A stretch of 64,000 nt of DNA from Raja brachyura. Lineage: Eukaryota. The translations under genes and the position numbers were made by a program. The stretch lies in the NCBI GenBank assembly GCA_963514005.1, contig OY740782.1:85808001-85872000 (forward strand), read 5' to 3'. Shown one piece after another: positions 1-45,118 of the stretch; the stretch's first letter is position 1, and every line of letters begins with the position of its first letter. Under the pieces are notes generated by a model. It worked only from the letters and a program-made list of their open reading frames with translations. It did not search any database and was not told where the DNA came from.

Positions 1-187
1 GTTTGATCCTTATTTTATGAGGAGTTACGATGAGGGATTTCGTGAAGACCCCGCCAGCACGCATGCGCGACATTCTTCAAAGCAGGGGTGTGGAATCACA
101 GATAACAACAATGAGTGATGATAGTAAGATTAAGAGAATCTAATATACCAGTTGACCTTATGATATAGGGTTAGGAGCAGAGGGCAA

Positions 188-290
188 GAAATCCCTCATT
201 GTAACTCCTCATAAAATAAGGATCAAACTTCAAACTGGTAAGTTCTCATTTAATCTTACTATTTTACTTCAGAGTCACGTGAAGATTTCA
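188..290. other. DIRS internal complementary region (ICR), copy 1
   Basis: 188-228 is the near reverse complement of 1-41. 261-278 (attttacttcagagtcac) matches the reverse complement of 7646-7663 with one mismatch. The two halves join at ATT. Confidence 0.9.
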
Positions 291-464
291 AAGCTCTGTG
301 ATTCCATGTCCTGGACCACGTCCATGCTCACACACTGCTGTAATACTGATGGAGGATGTATGTTAACATATTTCAGACTTGAACAAGCTGAAAAATAATA
401 ATGTATTTATTACTATAAAACAAAAAAACCCTGCATTCGGGGACAAACGTTTAGGGAACAGCAC

Positions 465-1506
465 TTAAAACTGACTCTGCAACGTTGCGGGATTGGCCAC
501 AGGTTTATTATAAACCCGCTGAAATGTAGTTTCACTGGCCCAGCCTGCTGTTGCGAGGACATAATCCATGGGTACCTCCATGGTCCTCGCCGCTGATGTG
601 GATGTAGGCCTGGTAGAATGAGATTTAAACATGTTAGTGTCTATACCTGCTGCACCCAATACCACTCTGAGCCACCTGGAGATAGTCTGCACCGTCACCC
701 TATGATGTGGGTTTTTATGGCTGATAAACAGTCCCATCTCCATTTTCCTGATGGTGTGTGTGACATTAATATAATGTCGGATATATGTGGCTATACAGTC
801 GAACATCAACGGGGTATGCTACGAATTCCAATTTCAGGCCAGTAGTTCCAGGCCTGTGTTGCTTAAGTAACTCATCTATAAAGAAAGTCACTTTATTGGG
901 GGTCGAGACCATCCTGTCCAGTTTTAGTTTCTGTAGTGTCTGGACCCGTTGTGCAGTGTTTAGTGCCATTAGCATCACCACTTTGAAGGTGAGTTTGTCC
1001 AGTGGTAAATCCATCATAGGCGACCAGCTCCTGAGTAGGGACAACACAACTCCAATATCCCAGGTGATATTATATCGTGGTCGGGGAAGGTTGGAATTAA
1101 ATATACCCCTCATACGTTTGGATACCAGCTGGTGAGATCCCACTCCAATATTGAGAGAGGATGATAGTGCACTCCTGGCACTGTTTATGGCACTGTAACT
1201 GAGGGCCTCATCAAAATGAAGGCCCGCGAGGAATTCCAGCACATTGGTAATCATAGCAGAGTTGTAGATATTCTTGGTCGGACTACAGAAGGCCTCCCAC
1301 TTCCTTATGTGGGTGAGGTACTGCTTCCTTGTCGTCTCTCTGCACGATGCTGTGATGATGTCCATGGTTCTTGTAGACAGCCCGAATTCCAGCAACAGCC
1401 TCTTCAGAACCTGCAAGCCAACAGGTTCAGAGGACCATGGCATGGATGATATTCCCCTGTTATGGGATTGGTCACCAAATTCAGACATTTGGTAACCTGA
1501 ATCCAT
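465..1506 (-). pseudogene. DIRS tyrosine recombinase (frameshifted; ORFs 766-1506 and 465-809)
   Basis: Motifs LSYSAINSARSALS, LNTAQRVQTL (catalytic R region), KSHSTR (HxxR) and AGWASETTFQRVY (catalytic Y). Confidence 0.9.
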
Positions 1507-1509
1507 GGT

Positions 1510-3221
1510 TCATTCATCATGCTGTGGACCACCGGGTACCATGGTTGTGTGGGCCAGTCGGGTATTATCAGTATACCTGATGCAGAATCTAGTTAATTTT
1601 CTGCAATACCCGACTGATGAGGCAGAATGGGAGAAATGCATAGAAAACCATTTCCCCAATATAGCGAGAACGCGTCCATCGCCACTGCCCCAGGATCTGG
1701 TTCCCAAGAGACATATGTTGGTATCTGATGGTTCAACCTGCATGCAAAAGGTCGATATCTGGTGTTCCATATTTGGCTATAATTTTAGCAAATATTTGGG
1801 GGTTCAACATCCACTTGATGTTGTCATTAAATACTCGTGACCTGGTGTCTGCCACTGTATTGAGCTTACCCGGAAGGTATGTAGCTGATATCCAAATATT
1901 TCTTTCAATACACCAGAGCCAGATTGAATTAGCCAATTCATCACAAGATATTCACTTGATACCACCTATATGGTTTAAATATGCCACCACAGTGGTATTA
2001 TCTATTTGAAGACGGACATGCGTATGATGCAGATTAGTGCAGTAAGCCCGCAGCCCGTGGAATGCTCCCAGCATTTCCAAATAGTTTATACCTTGTGATT
2101 GAAGAAGAGTAGACTTGTGCAAATCCCAACTGCCGCCACAACTAGAAGTGGTGTCGGTAGATCCCCAGCCCTGGGCATCTGCGTTGGTCTGTAACACGAC
2201 TGATGGATTTGATATAATGATGGGTTTAAAACAATCACGAACATTGCTAATCAACCATATTAGCTCAATTTTTGCCTTGCTTGGCAGCTGCATTGGTCTG
2301 TCAAAATGTCCAGCATTTGCTTTTAATGCTGAGATTTTAGCTCTTTGCAAGTTTTGACAGTGTAACGGGCCAAATTGTGCAGCTGGAAATGTAGCTACAA
2401 GTTTCCCAATCACCTTAGCAGCATGTCTAATGGTCAGTTTCCTGGCACAAGCAAGGCTGTTACATGCCTCTATTATGTCTGTTGCTTTGTTCTCTGGGAT
2501 AGTGACAATCATATCACTGGTGTTAATTGTGAATCTCAGATAGTCCATAATCCCAGAGGGGATGAACTTAGATTTGTCTGGATGGATGACAAACCCTAGT
2601 TTCTTGAATAATTATTTGGTAGCTGTTACTGCTAATTTAGCTAATTCCAAAGTTCTGCCCACAATTAAAATATCATCTAGATATGCCATGACTATGTGGT
2701 TTTGTCTTCTTAGAGACACCAATACTGGTTTTAGTATTTTGGTAAATAACCTAGGGGCTGTGGTAAGCCCATTAGGTAGGGCTTTGTATTGCCATAGTTG
2801 CCCCATCCAAACAAATTTTAAGTATTTCCGGTGATGTTCCCGTATAGGTACTGAATAGTATGCATCTTTTAGGCCGATGCGGACCATGAAGCACCCTCTG
2901 GAAATCAGTTGCTTAGCCGTTTCAAATATTTCCCATCTTGAAATGGGTATATTGAACAAAGGTATTCAAATGGGTTAAATCAATTATGATACGACATCCA
3001 CCATCTTTTTTGCTTTAGGTAAAGATGTTAGATACAAACTCAAGAGGTTCATGTGTCGTTTTTTCTATAACCCCCTTGGTGTATAACCTTAATAGCTCCA
3101 CATGTCCTTCCACTTTTTCTTTGTGAGAAAGTGCAAATTTCCTGTTAGGTACATGCTGAGCTGGGGGAAGATGGCCATTTATGAATTTAATTTCATAACC
3201 CCAAATACTTTGTAATATAAA
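1510..3221 (-). pseudogene. DIRS pol: reverse transcriptase, RNase H and Dam-like methyltransferase domains (fragmented)
   Basis: RT: LKDAYY, LPNGLTTAPRLFTK, YLDDILI (2612-2959). RNase H: INYLEMLG, QIDNTTVV (1952-2548). MT start: PDIDL (1733-1936). Several frameshifts. Confidence 0.9.
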
Positions 3222-3230
3222 TCTTATATT

Positions 3231-5595
3231 AGCAGGCTATTTTAGACTGGGTATTGAGTAATGAGGAAGGGTTAGTTAGCAGTCTTATTGTGCGTGCCCC
3301 CTTGGGCAAGAGTGACCATAATATGGTCGAGTTCTTCATTAGGATGGAGAGTGACATTGTTAATTCAGAAACAATGGTTCTGAACTTAAGGAAAGGTAAC
3401 TTTGAGGGTATGAGACGTGAATTGGCCAAGATTGACTGGCAATCAATTCTAAAAGGGTTGACGGTGGATATGCAATGGAAGACATTTAAAGACTGCATGG
3501 ATGAACTACAAAAATTGTTCATCCCAATTTGGCAAAGGAATAGATCAGGGAAGGTAGTGCATCCGTGGATAACAAGGGAAATCAGGGATAGTATCAAAGC
3601 AAAGGATGATGCGTACAAAGTAGCCAGAAAAAGCAGCATACCAGAGGACTGGGAGAAATTCAGAGACCAGCAGAGAAGGACAAAGGGCTTGATTAGGAAA
3701 GGAAAAATAGATTATGAAAGAAAACTGGCAGGGAACATAAAAACTGACTGCAAAAGTTTTTATAGATATGTGAAGAGAAATAGATTAATTAAAACAAATG
3801 TAGGACCCTTGCAGTCAGAAACAGGTGAGTTGATCATGGGGAACAAGGATATGGCGGACCAATTAAATAACTACTTTGGTTCCGTCTTCACTAAGGAAGA
3901 CATAAATAATCTGCCGGAAATAGCAGGGGACCGCAGGTCAAAGGAGTACTTGAGTGAAATCCAGGTTAGTCGGGAAGTGGTGTTGGGTAAATTGAATGGA
4001 TTAAAGGCCAATAAATCCCCAGGGCCAGATAGGCTGCATCCCAGAGTACTTAAGGAAGTAGCTCCGGAAATAGTGGATGCATTAGTGATAATCTTTCAAA
4101 ACTCATTAGATTCTGGAGTAGTTCCTGAGGATTGGCGGGTAGCAAATGTAACCCCTCTTTTTAAGAAGGGGGGGGAGAGAGAAAACGGGGAATTACAGAC
4201 CAGTTAGTCTAACATCGGTAGTGGGGAAACTGCTAGAGTCAGTTATTAAAGATGGGATAGCAGCACATTTGGAAAGTGGTGAAATCATTGGACAAAGTCA
4301 GCATGGATTTACGAAAGGTAAATCATGTCTGACGAATCTTGTGGAATTTTTCGAGGATGTAACTAGTAGCGTGGATGGGGGAGAACCAGTGGATGTGCTG
4401 TATCTGGACTTCCAGAAGGCTTTCGACAAGGTCCCACATAAGCGATTAGTATATAAACTTAAAGCATATGGCATTGGGGGTTCAGTATTGATGTGGATAG
4501 AGAACTGGCTGGCAAACAGGAAGCAAAGAGTAGGAGTAAACGGATCCTTTTCACAATGGCAGGCAGTGACTAGTGGGGTACCGCAAGGCTCAGTGCTGGG
4601 ACCCCAGCTATTTACAATATACATAAATGATCTGGATGAGGGAATTGAAGGCAATATCTCCAAGTTTGCGGAAGACACTATGCTGGGGGGCAGTATTAGC
4701 TGTGAGGAGGATGCTAGGAGAATGCAAGGTGACTTGGATAGGCTGGGTGAGTGGGCAAATGTTTGGCAGATGCAGTATAATGTGGATAAATGTGAGGTTA
4801 TCCACTTTGGTGGCAAAAATCGGAAAACCGACTACTATCTAAATGGTGGCCGATTAGGAAAAGAGGAGATGCAGCACGACCTGGGTGTCATGGTACACCA
4901 GTCATTGAAAGTAGGCATGCAGGTACAGCAGGCAGTGAAGAAAGCCAATGGTATATTAGCTTTCATAGCAAAAGGATTTGAGTATAGGAGCAGGGAGGTT
5001 CTACTTCAGTTGTATAGGGTCCTGGTGAGGCCAGACCTGGAGTATTGCGTACAGTTCTGGTCTCCAAATCTGAGAAGGACAGTATTGCCATAGAGGGAGT
5101 GCAGCGAAGGTTCACCAGACTGATTCCTGGGATGTCAGGACTGTCTTATGAACAAAGACTGCATAGACTCGGTTTATACTCTCTAGAATTTAGGAGATTG
5201 AGAGGGGATCTTACAGAATCTTACAAGATTCTTAAGGGGTTGGACAGGCTAGATGCAGGAAGATTGTTCCCGATGTTGGGGAGGTCCAGGACAAGGGGTC
5301 ACAGCTTAAGGATAAGGGGGAAATCCTTTAGGACCGAGATGAGAAGGAATCTTTTCACACAGAGAGTGGTGGGTCTCTGGAACTCTCTGCCACAGAGGGT
5401 AGTTGAGGCCAGTTCATTGGCTATATTTAAGAGGGAGTTAGATGTGGCCCTTGTGGCTAAGTGGGATCAGAGGGTATGGAGAGAAGGCAGGTACGGGATA
5501 CTGAGTTGGATGATTAGCCATGATCATATTGAATGGCGGTGCAGGCTCGAAGGGCCGAATGGCCTACTCCTGCACCTAATTTCTATGTTTCTATG
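3231..5595 (+). mobile_element. 5'-truncated CR1-clade LINE (HER1-like) inserted in DIRS pol; ORF2 frameshifted
   Basis: SDHN endonuclease end, [47 protein letters not shown] (mutated FADD). 3' tail (tttctatg)n. The DIRS frame WGSITSDTF/ILQSIWGY is restored if the insert is removed (taaa duplicated). Confidence 0.95.
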
Positions 5596-5712
5596 TAAAA
5601 GTGTCAGAAGTTATAGAACCCCATGCATTCCAGAATGTACGCAACCTCCGTCCTACTTGTGATGTTATACATGCAGCACTCCCAAGAGAACCAGAACCCC
5701 TTACCTCCATGG

Positions 5713-7526: not shown

Positions 7527-8651
7527 CGTTTCTGTAAGAAATTCGCAAATACAGAAACTAACCAGCTCAAGGTTAGTTGAGATGCAAATGCGAGCGACGA
7601 TATGTCGCGCATGTGTGCTGGCGGGGTCTTCGCGAAGTCACTCATGTGACTCGGAAGTAAAATTAATATCCCATTTTAATTTTTCATCAGTGATTATTTC
7701 AAGAAGGTATTCATTAGTGTCAGAGACAGTCTGACAGACTTTCATCTATAGTATGATAACATTCAGTTGTAAAAATAGTATTATCCTTGTTGCTACTAAC
7801 CGAGTGAGGTATTGAGCTAATAAATAATTCACTGAGCTCTCATTGCATTCCTATAACCAGGTAAATTTAATCAGAATACACCAAGAGAGAAGTACTATTT
7901 AGCCTGGCATCTGATCACTATTTGTTAATGACAAAGATCTGCAGTTTGAGGTTTCCATGGAAATAAAGTTAAATTCTTATCAGATGAGTGTTCACTATTT
8001 ATATAAAAACAAGAAGCCTTCCCAAAAAGTACAGCCAGTGCTTTGGAGTCACAGCAAGGAGCCATTAAAAAACAATAATTAAATAATTGCTCTATGGAGT
8101 AATAAATTAAATACATCTCAGCAAAAAACCCATGTGACGCAATGAATTTGCACAATTTCATCCTTGGATAGATGGGAATAAAATATCCACATCTTGATGC
8201 TATGAGTCCCATGTGAAATACATTTGGGCAGATTCAACTTTGTTCCCTGCAAGCAAGCAGAATAAAGCTGCCCACCATTCATCAACCACTTCCTGTCGAC
8301 GACCTGCTCCAAATCAGCTCCCTAGGGAGAGTGTGCATTCCCTTCAATTGGAAGTCTTGAACCTTGCCTCAATCTACTGCCTGTCAATGCTGCTGAAATG
8401 TGTCCTAAAGTTGGTCTACAACTTTGTCTCTTATAGTAACTGGCTGGCTTACACAACAGATTCACTTCTCCAGCAGGTGGGTCCAATCTGGAGCAAATTC
8501 TCAGCTGCAATCTTTGCTGAGTGTCACGCTTTAATAGTTGCTAATTTAGAATTGTAATTCTACTGGCCCTACTTAGCCTGATGGCTGCAACCAATATTTG
8601 CAAGGCATTGACAAAGTCATCATCCTGAACCATATTCTCGCTGTTGGGGAC

Positions 8652-25408: not shown

Positions 25409-26120
25409 TCTATATAATTAAAAGTTTAAATTTGACCACTTCCTGTTGCACTGTATATTGATTTTAGAAAAAAAGTGACCACTTCAGTCCCCCTCCAGCT
25501 GTCCGGGCCAGAGGATTTTTCCCATCGATGAAAAATAAAAGACATTAATGTTTAAAAAAGAACACTGAGAATACTGACCTGTAAGTGCCCTTTTTGTGTT
25601 TTTAAAGTGTGCCTTTTGCAACTGTGTGGTTATTGAAATGTGTGCTTTTTGCAACCGTGTGCCTTTTGCAACCATGTGCCTTTTGCAACCGTGTGCCTTT
25701 TGCAACCGTGTGCCTTTTGCAACCGTGTGCTTTTTGCAACAGTGTGCCTTTTGCAACTGTGCCTTTTGCAACTGAAAAAAGATGAAAATGTCTAAAATTG
25801 ATTGTCCACCCTCTCCCCCTTCTCTCTCACAGTCTCTCACCGGTTTTCGGCAGAATTTCTGGCAGTTTCTGAGCTGCCAGCCTACCAGGTTACTGAGTAA
25901 CTGAGCTGCCAGCCCAAGAATCCATTCGGCCCACAATGTCCACACTGGCTCTCTGGAAACTAGTCCCTTCGGCCCACAACACCCATGCTGACAATGCAGA
26001 AAGCCCCCCCCCCCCCCACACTGGCCAGCAATCTTGGAATTGGTGAAGAGGTGGAATATTGTGTTGGGGGACCATCCCTCCCGTGTGAAGCTGGGCCCCA
26101 ACGGGTCCCACTTAGTCTAG
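25409..26120 (+). mobile_element. Non-autonomous Helitron, 712 bp
   Basis: Inserted between A and T, starts TC (tctatataatt), ends CTAG. Hairpin tgggccccaacgggtccca (26092-26110) lies 10 nt before the 3' end. No TSD or TIR. Confidence 0.85.
25607..25775. repeat. 17-bp minisatellite (gtgtgccttttgcaacc)n inside the Helitron
   Basis: About 8-9 near-identical tandem units directly visible. Confidence 0.92.
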
Positions 26121-43496: not shown

Positions 43497-45118
43497 TAGA
43501 AACATAGAAATTTAGAAAATAGGTGCAGGAGTAGGCCATTCGGCCCTTCGAGCCTGCACCGCCATTCAATATGATCATGGCTGATCATCCAACTCAGTAT
43601 CCTGTACCTGCCTTCTCTCCATACCTCCTGATCCTTTTACCCACAAGGGCCACATCTAACACACTCTTAAATATAGCCAATGAACTGGCTTCAACTACCT
43701 TCTGTGGCAGAGGATTCCTGAGATTCACCACTCTCTGTGTGAAAAATGTTTTCCTCATCTCGGTCCTAAAGGAATTCCCCTTATCCTTAGACTGTGACCC
43801 CTTGTTCTGGACCTCCCCAACATCGGGAACAATCTTCCTGCATCTAGCCTGTCCAACCCCTTAAGAATTTTGTAAGTTTCTATAAGATCCCCCCTCAGTC
43901 TTCTAAATTCTAGCGAGTACAAGCCGAGTCTATCCAGTCTTTCCTCATATGAAAGTCCTGACATCCCAGGAATCAGTCAGGTGAACCTTCTCTGTACCCC
44001 CTCTATGGCAAGAATGTCTTTCCTCACATTTGGAGACCAAAACTGTACGCAATACTCCAGGTGTTGTCTCACCCAAACCCTGTACAACTGCAGTAGAACC
44101 TCCCTGCTCCTATACTCAAATCCTTTTGATATGAATGCTAACATACCATTTGCTTTCTTCACTGCCTGCTGCACCTGCATGCCTACTTTCAATGATTGGT
44201 GTACCATGACACCCAGGTCTCGTTGCATCTCCCCTTTTCCTAATCTGCCACCATTCAGATAATAGTCAACCCTCCTGTTTTTGCGACCAAAGTGGATAAC
44301 CTCACATTTATCCACATTATAATGCATCTGCCATGCATTTTCCCACTCACCCAGCCTATCCAAGTCACCTTGCAGCCTCCTAGCGTCCTCCTCACACCTA
44401 ACACTACCCCCCCAGCTTAGTGTCATCCGCAAACTTGGAGATGTTGCATTCAATTCCCTTGTCCAAATCATTAATATATATTGTAAATAGCTGGGGTCCC
44501 AGCATTGAGCCTTGCGGTACCCCACTAGTCACTGCCTGCCATTCTGAAAAGGACCCGTTTGCTCCTACGCTTTGCTTCCTGTCTGCCAAAAATTCTATAA
44601 GATTCGTTAGACCTGATTTACCATTCGGAAATCCAAGCTGACTTTGTCCAATGATTTCACCACTTTCCAAATGTGCTGCTATCCCATCTTTAATAACTGA
44701 CTCTAGCAGTTTCCCCACTACCGATGTTAGACTAACTGGTCTGTAATTCCCTGTTTTCTCTCTCCCTCCTTTTTTAAAAAGTGGGGTTACATAGCTAACC
44801 TGGATTTCACTCAGTTCCTCCATCTTATTTGACCCCCGGTCCACTGCTATTTCCGGCAGATTATTTATGTCTTCCTTAGTGAAGACAGAACCAAAGTAGT
44901 TATTCAATTGGTCTGCCATGTCCTTGTTCCCCATGATCAATTCACCTGTTTCTGACTGCAAGGGATCTACATTTGTTTTAACTAATCTTTTTCTTTTCAT
45001 ATATCTATAAAAACTTTTGCAGTCAGTTTTTATGTTCCCTGCCAGTTTCCTTTCGTAATCTGTTTTCCCTTTCCTAATTAAGCCCTTTGTCCTCCTCTGC
45101 TGGACTCTGAATTTCTCC
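43497..45118 (-). mobile_element. 5'-truncated CR1 LINE, same family as 3231-5595, with two internal deletions
   Basis: Near-identical peptides ([44 protein letters not shown]) and tttctatg-type tail at 43497-43520. Confidence 0.94.

Follow-up and report, generated by a model that had tools for sequence, protein, structure and literature searches.

Introduction

DIRS1-like retrotransposons have been described with the architecture lITR-lICR-rICR-rITR-rE (PMC3266345). As laid out in the passages of that paper on element structure, the ICR is complementary to both ends and its halves overlap on a 3-nt ATT, the inverted terminal repeats (ITRs) are short with divergent and conserved parts, and a word of at least 10 nt is common to both ITRs and both ICRs; the locus described here agrees on each point. 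Because such a word is shared, the two ICR halves can also pair together. In the Cappello model for Dictyostelium DIRS-1, as related in PMC7192593, the ICR templates the rebuilding of the ends in a single-stranded cDNA, a scheme that the present element fits. According to the same source, the cDNA of DIRS-1 is antisense, single-stranded and mostly linear, and the ICR is required after first-strand synthesis. Accounts of the DIRS-1 transcript differ, with the right LTR given as mostly missing in the relevant parts of PMC7192593 and PMC5633606 and as nearly entire in those of PMC3950715. Of the scheme by which the ends are rebuilt from the ICR, synthesis is primed and the recombinase acts on its substrate, the need for the ICR is the one element reported as shown in the sections of PMC7192593 on this topic. 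The literature that we searched describes neither a stem around the ICR nor an arm directed against it; figures of the founding DIRS papers, or supplements, may show the stem or its flanking motifs, and Cappello 1985, Goodwin and Poulter 2001 and Poulter and Goodwin 2005 are represented here through the papers that cite them. A preliminary description of the DNA analysed here had proposed that a conserved local hairpin competes with the terminus for the ICR of a DIRS element. Here, we show that this hairpin consists of two layers, an outer stem (P1) that encloses the ICR and an inner anti-ICR arm; together they apparently form an undescribed layer of the 3' end, of which one part is widespread and the other lineage-specific.

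Results

The analysed stretch (64 kb in full, hereafter the window) is eukaryotic DNA rich in repeats, among them LINEs and SINE-like families. It contains two DIRS1-like retrotransposon copies, both on the minus strand, and no further DIRS copies were detected in the window by blastn, tblastn or profile search. In both copies, RVT_1 and integrase matches or tblastn place reverse transcriptase (RT), RNase H and methyltransferase ahead of a co-oriented tyrosine recombinase; the methyltransferase is assigned by tblastn to the pol of a distant element (L002, introduced below), whose own Dam match is weak (E 4e-4). Copy 1 has a broken pol with RT, RNase H and methyltransferase region at 1425-3170 (minus strand; RVT_1 at 2615-2965, tblastn with L002 pol) and a tyrosine recombinase ORF in pieces at 465-1509 (minus strand), whose Pfam matches to Phage_int_SAM_4 and Phage_integrase are below the curated cut-offs. 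Among the 30 recombinase homologues listed, 26 have integrase domains listed, and a skate protein with 52% identity is the only organism-named match.

The left terminus and left ITR of copy 1 lie at 7602-7663 (minus strand) and begin with ATT at 7663-7661; the right end would fall approximately 35 nt past the window start, judging from copy 2. The right ITR (22-73, minus strand) is an inverted copy of the left end with 88% identity to 7602-7652 over only 52 nt and no match further in. The ICR is complementary to both termini, and its halves overlap on a 3-nt junction. Its right half (185-263, minus strand) is the complement of the right terminus, its left half (264-284, minus strand) that of the left terminus, and the ATT circle junction lies at 261-263 (plus strand). 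Of the right terminus of copy 1, the ICR-complementary part at 1-44 (minus strand) is in the window, and 42 of its 44 nt are complementary to 185-228. The corresponding terminus of copy 2 is 79 nt long (60851-60929, minus strand), is complementary to 61083-61161 at 73 of 79 positions and ends in ATT; copy 2 has its complete right end at 60851 and otherwise runs off the window. Each copy thus has only one end in the window, and ATT is found at both of these ends. The divergence between ICR and terminus is 5–8%. The element is an ordinary member of the DIRS1-like group. Copy 1 is decayed: a LINE interrupts its pol, its reading frames are broken, and the left half of its ICR lacks, by deletion, 12 nt that copy 2 has.

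Some further features were recorded in passing. At the start of the left terminus stands a short hairpin of 7 bp and a 4-nt loop (7627-7657, minus strand). It is mirrored in the left ICR half of copy 2 (61169-61187), and the 12-nt deletion in copy 1 takes this mirrored hairpin away. The LINE in the pol of copy 1 (3233-5596, plus strand) has an RT and a sister copy of about 90% identity at 43502-45118 (minus strand). An open 1,285-aa LINE ORF at 14381-18238 (plus strand), which carries endonuclease and RT domains and has a 393-aa ORF before it, may belong to a young element, and an array of 17-nt tandem repeats occupies 25599-25778.

All five helices assigned to the hairpin in the preliminary description exist (91-102/295-306, 121-132/251-262, 134-138/243-247, 146-153/233-240 and 180-184/193-197), with 42 of 42 pairs being Watson-Crick. 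The fold of 85-310 has a z-score of -6.1 as minus-strand RNA and -5.3 as plus-strand DNA, and none of 200 shuffles reached it in either case. Aligned on its own, 85-184 of copy 1 scores 44 against the reverse complement of 189-310 (shuffle maximum 38, 0/500) and the arm of copy 2 scores 46 (shuffle maximum 29, 0/500), while 595 other 100-nt stretches of the window score at most 34. With only the arm shuffled, none of 200 shuffles equalled the duplex energy in any of four strand and chemistry settings, in both copies. These fold and arm-only shuffle tests rule out chance complementarity. Two Rfam matches in window positions 1-1000 are far below threshold, and both lie outside 91-306.

The hairpin has two layers. 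The outer stem P1 joins its 3' arm in element sense (91-102, minus strand) to its 5' arm (295-306, minus strand) by 12 of 12 pairs. It had been counted as part of the ICR-sequestering structure; it lies outside the ICR and uses none of its bases, so its pairing and that of the terminus are not mutually exclusive in bases and, from the coordinates, would cross as a pseudoknot. The inner anti-ICR arm (103-184, minus strand; 0/300 shuffles in each window copy) had been taken for a degenerate second copy of the terminus. It is indeed a degenerate copy, but of more than the terminus: the entire ICR is reproduced in it, inverted and colinear, and the match crosses the junction, takes in the left-end half and extends into flank that is not part of the terminus. 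The arm has no counterpart in the left ITR, and its assignment to the right ITR was rejected because the left-end match stops at 73. Within the arm, 121-130 faces the junction and 146-153 faces a GGTAAGT word, and an apical hairpin GAGGG/CCCTC spans 180-197 (180-184/193-197, strand-neutral), where the consensus of five elements described below has three G-C pairs. The junction was said to be covered by the stem, and for A261 and T262 this is so, both being in Watson-Crick pairs within 121-132/251-262; T263 faces G120, which gives a wobble on the plus strand only. In copy 2, all three ATT bases are covered (61020-61030/61151-61161). The hairpin of copy 2 occupies 60992-61214 (minus strand), with P1 at 60992-61000/61206-61214, the inner arm at 61001-61082 and the ICR at 61083-61194.

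Between the two copies, 38 of 115 four-fold degenerate sites are identical (33%), which is saturation, and identity is 50% in the 3' UTR, 92–95% in the ICR and 62% in the arm. In each copy, pairing survives at approximately 70 of the 95 arm positions that align (z-score of the inner arm -5.9 to -8.5 in both), so with silent sites saturated the arm is not a relic left to decay, and a neutral, never-refreshed relic is ruled out. Exact runs between the copies are found at 78-85, 87-92, 94-101, 121-130, 174-178 and 180-184. However, paired positions of the inner arm (103-184) are not better conserved than unpaired ones (32/53 versus 15/27 identical, P = 0.43; the other P value obtained is 0.38), and partly different patches are paired in each lineage. 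This patchwise pairing fits selection on the fold, but it also fits repeated re-copying. In a decoy consensus of the two sequences, with the inner arm paired to the ICR, 4 of 61 pairs are changed on both sides and one of them is clean, at 93/304 in the outer stem (G-C versus A-T). A second, at the apex, is doubtful, as the base in the ICR does not agree at this point with the terminus of the same copy.

These numbers bear on the reading that only P1 is functional and that the inner arm is a by-product, produced when template switching across P1 re-copies patches of the ICR into the spacer. Template switching is reported to extend identity between imperfect inverted repeat arms (in the parts of PMC3820800 and PMC8604942 on that process), and the copy-specific patches, the lack of excess conservation at paired positions and the missing arm in all three distant elements (below) agree with such an origin. 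However, the blocks common to both saturated lineages (121-130, 94-101 and 180-184) fall on the junction, P1 and the apex, and neither arm is near-perfect: with ICR and terminus only 5–8% apart, decay after insertion is ruled out as the source of the approximately 25% mismatch. We regard the by-product reading as unlikely.

To place the hairpin among other elements we compared five of them (copy 1, copy 2 and L001–L003; YR 35–55% identical). L001–L003 are three loci out of 112 candidate stretches from a scan of a prokaryote genome collection; all are DIRS1-like by their ORFs, with recombinases 35–44% identical to those of the window copies and ICR regions that align with the window ICRs. Their contigs, found in bacterial metagenome-assembled genomes, are likely eukaryotic contamination, and that of L003 also carries LINE pieces. 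A search of plasmid and phage sequences for relatives gave no match, no DIRS terminal sequence was found in supplement file S4 of PMC3266345 or in the supplement files of PMC5941688 that were available, and Rfam had no match in L001–L003.

P1 is present at the same place in all five elements with its letters swapped. The longest perfect helices are 12 nt in copy 1, 9 in copy 2, 9 in L001 and 12 in L002, and L003 has an interrupted stem of 14 pairs with a longest perfect run of only 6. Depending on element and chemistry, 0–25 of 1,000 shuffles reach the observed pairing, and in a cross matrix the arms pair with their own partner alone, except between the homologous copies 1 and 2. With DNA parameters, the 20-nt segment beside the first motif (below) pairs with the spacer more strongly than all 193 other upstream segments in four of the elements and than 192 of them in copy 2 (ranks 1 and 2 of 194, respectively). 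The RNA parameters give a weak result for copy 2, where 17 of the 193 segments equal P1. P1 was first spotted by eye in L001–L003, which makes these P1 tests post hoc. RNAalifold recovers P1 unprompted, with changes on both sides in 6 of 8 pairs. What covaries across the five elements is the outer stem, which is not a decoy. Predicted P1 occupancy in copy 2 ranges from 0.01 to 0.97 with the stretch folded, and is 0.38 in L001 as RNA.

P1 is flanked by a repeated word, GCT(T/C)TRAA. Its first copy lies between P1 and the ICR (287-294, minus strand) and is at this place in all five elements; its second lies between the outer stem and the right ITR (76-83, minus strand) and is present in the four elements that reach far enough, copy 2, L003 and, as a variant, L001 being the others (L002 ends before). 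The whole window has 13 matches to the word on both strands. A reading as a TCF/LEF site was dropped because the variants in L001 and L003 do not fit. In copy 2, the second motif is part of a 10-nt tandem duplication (60964-60983).

Two observations concern the surroundings of P1. The flank just after the terminal ATT of copy 2 (60844-60850) repeats 7 nt of the P1 3' arm, so that the other P1 arm could pair across the integration junction; this is a single clear case in which chance is possible, and by eye the flank of L003 matches its own P1 arm at 7 of 10 positions. An AATAAA lies approximately 100 nt upstream of P1 in both copies (406-411 and 61320-61325, minus strand) and an ATTAAA in L002, with no AATAAA upstream of P1 in L001 or L003; it could mark an mRNA end before the ICR.

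The inner arm does not share the range of P1. Presented originally as a conserved feature of DIRS elements, it is found in both window copies and in none of the three distant elements, in which 152, 190 and 105 of 300 shuffles reach the observed alignment score. L003 has a weak inner-arm signal as RNA only (6/150 shuffles), and L001 and L003 lack approximately 25 nt exactly at the junction-facing block.

What the inner arm competes with was examined by folding. The pairings had been called mutually exclusive, which is correct for the inner arm and the terminus, both of which use ICR positions 193-262, and does not extend to the outer stem. The idea of a balanced two-state switch fails on energy, given that terminus:ICR pairing wins by 81.6 (RNA) and 50.4 (DNA) kcal/mol, and the idea of only two folds fails on a third one, the ICR self-hairpin, which likewise spans the junction, is beaten by terminus pairing as well, and emerges as the consensus when the five elements are folded together. 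In that consensus, P1 encloses a long self-hairpin across the junction in place of the decoy fold. Pairing is seen in 90% of 208 cells, compared with 36–45% in slid controls, both partners differ in 23 of 42 pairs, and none of 500 shuffles does as well; the structure was taken from the same alignment that was tested, and the control ignores relatedness. Part of the self-hairpin covariation arises because both ICR halves are copied from inverted ITRs.

Comparable stability is confined to the decoy fold and the self-hairpin as sense RNA. The two-copy consensus depends on the strand: for the sense strand it is the self-hairpin, in which many pairs are G-U, and for the antisense strand it is the decoy fold. 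With each copy folded singly, the decoy has an advantage over the self-hairpin of 9 and 3 kcal/mol in sense RNA and of 13 and 14 kcal/mol in antisense DNA at 37 °C, and in a longer RNA of copy 2 the self-hairpin wins. When the terminus is absent, the predicted helix probability of the hairpin is 0.93–0.98 in copy 1 and 0.96 in copy 2 cDNA; in a truncation series, the decoy fold is predicted to hold until approximately 25–45 nt of terminus are present and is then gone. Heuristic direct-path estimates put the barrier between decoy and subsequent terminus pairing at no more than 40 (RNA) and 29 (DNA) kcal/mol. The models predict a one-way hand-over that is triggered when the end is made, and not a balanced switch.

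Shuffling the inner arm of copy 2 restores the RNA self-hairpin (from 0.02 to 0.98) and lowers access to the landing site, the 12 nt common to ITR and left ICR, from 0.46 to 0.21 as RNA and from 0.34 to 0.20 as DNA (0/40 shuffles reach native); the site is mostly paired even with the arm. For the ICR folded alone as cDNA, the junction is unpaired at 0.45 and 0.31 in the window copies versus 0.09–0.35 in L001–L003, a weaker opening than the 0.81–0.83 of the truncation series.

A general DIRS switch between decoy and terminus pairing that times ICR use, as first proposed, would draw on the exclusive use of 193-262, and barriers of the above size, being upper bounds, could give a kinetic delay. 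However, the gap of 50–82 kcal/mol, the existence of three folds and the absence of the arm from all three distant elements make it very unlikely.

The hairpin also covers a GGTAAGT word (237-243, plus strand; 61137-61143, plus strand, in copy 2), which we take to be like a 5' splice site, or splice donor. Its complement ACTTACC is in the ICR of all five elements, the word itself is on the right terminus approximately 20–25 nt from the end, and our literature search found no paper joining DIRS, tyrosine recombinase and GTAAGT. The spacer has two C-rich boxes in the three distant elements (L001 2046-2084, L002 4233-4258 and L003 2942-2977), which give four GGG runs on the cDNA strand, and three runs are found in the window copies; such boxes could be quadruplex or Sp1/KLF-type sites.

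The fold might act in an antisense transcript that starts from the right end, lacks the terminus and hides the splice-donor-like word. The decoy is most stable as plus-strand RNA (-82 and -84 kcal/mol, 22–23 better than the self-hairpin), 146-153 pairs over 233-240, and all nine one-sided changes in the plus-strand consensus keep a G-U pair, partly by construction. The G-rich boxes of the spacer could be promoter sites, and in DIRS-1 the right LTR drives antisense RNA (in the relevant sections of PMC3950715). However, G-T wobbles number 5–8 on the plus strand versus 1–2 on the minus strand in copy 1 and 0–4 versus 3–6 in copy 2, so the asymmetry is seen in copy 1 only, and P1 of L002 and L003 is lengthened by G-U pairs on the sense strand. 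An action in antisense RNA consequently seems quite unlikely. In general, the wobble counts do not decide between the strands, the two copies pointing in different directions.

Discussion

The reading that we prefer, held with middling confidence, is that the two-layer hairpin likely keeps the ICR and its ATT junction covered in a single-stranded intermediate until the right terminus displaces it, as the folding models predict. The role would be to mask and present the junction in single-stranded cDNA or RNA, for which we see the chances as about even. P1 closes the ICR domain in the five elements compared and has GCT(T/C)TRAA next to each of its arms, where the left ICR half and the right ITR are entered; these two stretches serve as templates for end rebuilding in the published model. 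In this way P1 may organise the domain and bring two motif-marked template entrances together. The inverted ICR copy lengthens P1 inward across the junction in the window copies only. In the distant elements, the junction is probably covered by the ICR self-hairpin on both strands, whereas in the window lineage the self-hairpin appears to lean on G-U pairs of the sense RNA and to be weak on the antisense cDNA, where the inner arm may take over, with a modelled advantage of 13–14 kcal/mol as cDNA versus 3–9 as RNA. The arm may have arisen by template switching across P1 and then been kept or re-copied, possibly because it prevents the two halves of the ICR from closing on each other and gives the incoming cDNA end modestly better access to its landing site. 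The transition would run in one direction only, set off when the terminus is synthesised or released, and the terminus would then displace the arm for good. If the right LTR is in the transcript from the start, the hairpin would be only transient.

A broader version of this masking model is possible but doubtful: a replication platform shared by animal DIRS1-like elements, in which P1 sets two protein-docking words where the templates for end rebuilding begin, and the junction is covered by the self-hairpin in most lineages and, on the cDNA strand of this one, by an anti-ICR arm of recent evolutionary origin. As RNA and cDNA would fold differently, reverse transcription itself would then flip the structure.

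By analogy with integrons, the ICR and arm could form a folded single-strand attachment site, a putative mimic of the double-stranded junction onto which the tyrosine recombinase would be loaded. The inner block with the best conservation has the junction at its middle, copy 2 pairs both sides of ATT, DIRS-1 cDNA is single-stranded and integrable when supplied (PMC7192593, in the passages on cDNA) and integron attC is a precedent (in the portions of PMC3458562 that deal with folding). However, exchange at the ICR junction would permute elements and the observed ends are canonical, and the arm is not general among the five elements, which leaves this the least credible of the readings considered.

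Both the covarying stem, with the two words beside it, and the anti-junction arm of this lineage offer short, mutable targets for which compensatory rescue is possible. In addition, P1 and the motifs could help to locate ICR boundaries in annotation.

Compared with known systems, the locus adds features to the DIRS1-like architecture: the passages of PMC3266345 on that architecture mention neither a stem that closes the ICR nor a word repeated on its flanks, and they place no inverted copy of the ICR in front of the ITR. In Xenopus, ICR and ITR overlap slightly in most families according to the corresponding section of PMC9210276, whereas here they are 110 nt apart. The 3'-end hairpin of DIRS-1 RNA (4792-4805), suggested as a primer in one part of PMC7192593, is terminal, whereas the hairpin here is internal and encloses the ICR. 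The Cappello end-regeneration model, in the form given by the citing papers, has no masked ICR state, unlike our proposal. Template-switch quasi-palindromes, as presented in the sections of PMC3820800 and PMC8604942 on their formation, are likewise imperfect inverted repeats with lineage-specific perfect patches; they reflect a mutational process and not a function. Such a process might account for how the inner arm arose, though not for the fixed position of P1 beside two motifs. Integron attC, in the account of its folded form in PMC3458562, is likewise an imperfect single-stranded DNA hairpin centred on a tyrosine-recombinase crossover; the productive junction here is the one made by the termini.
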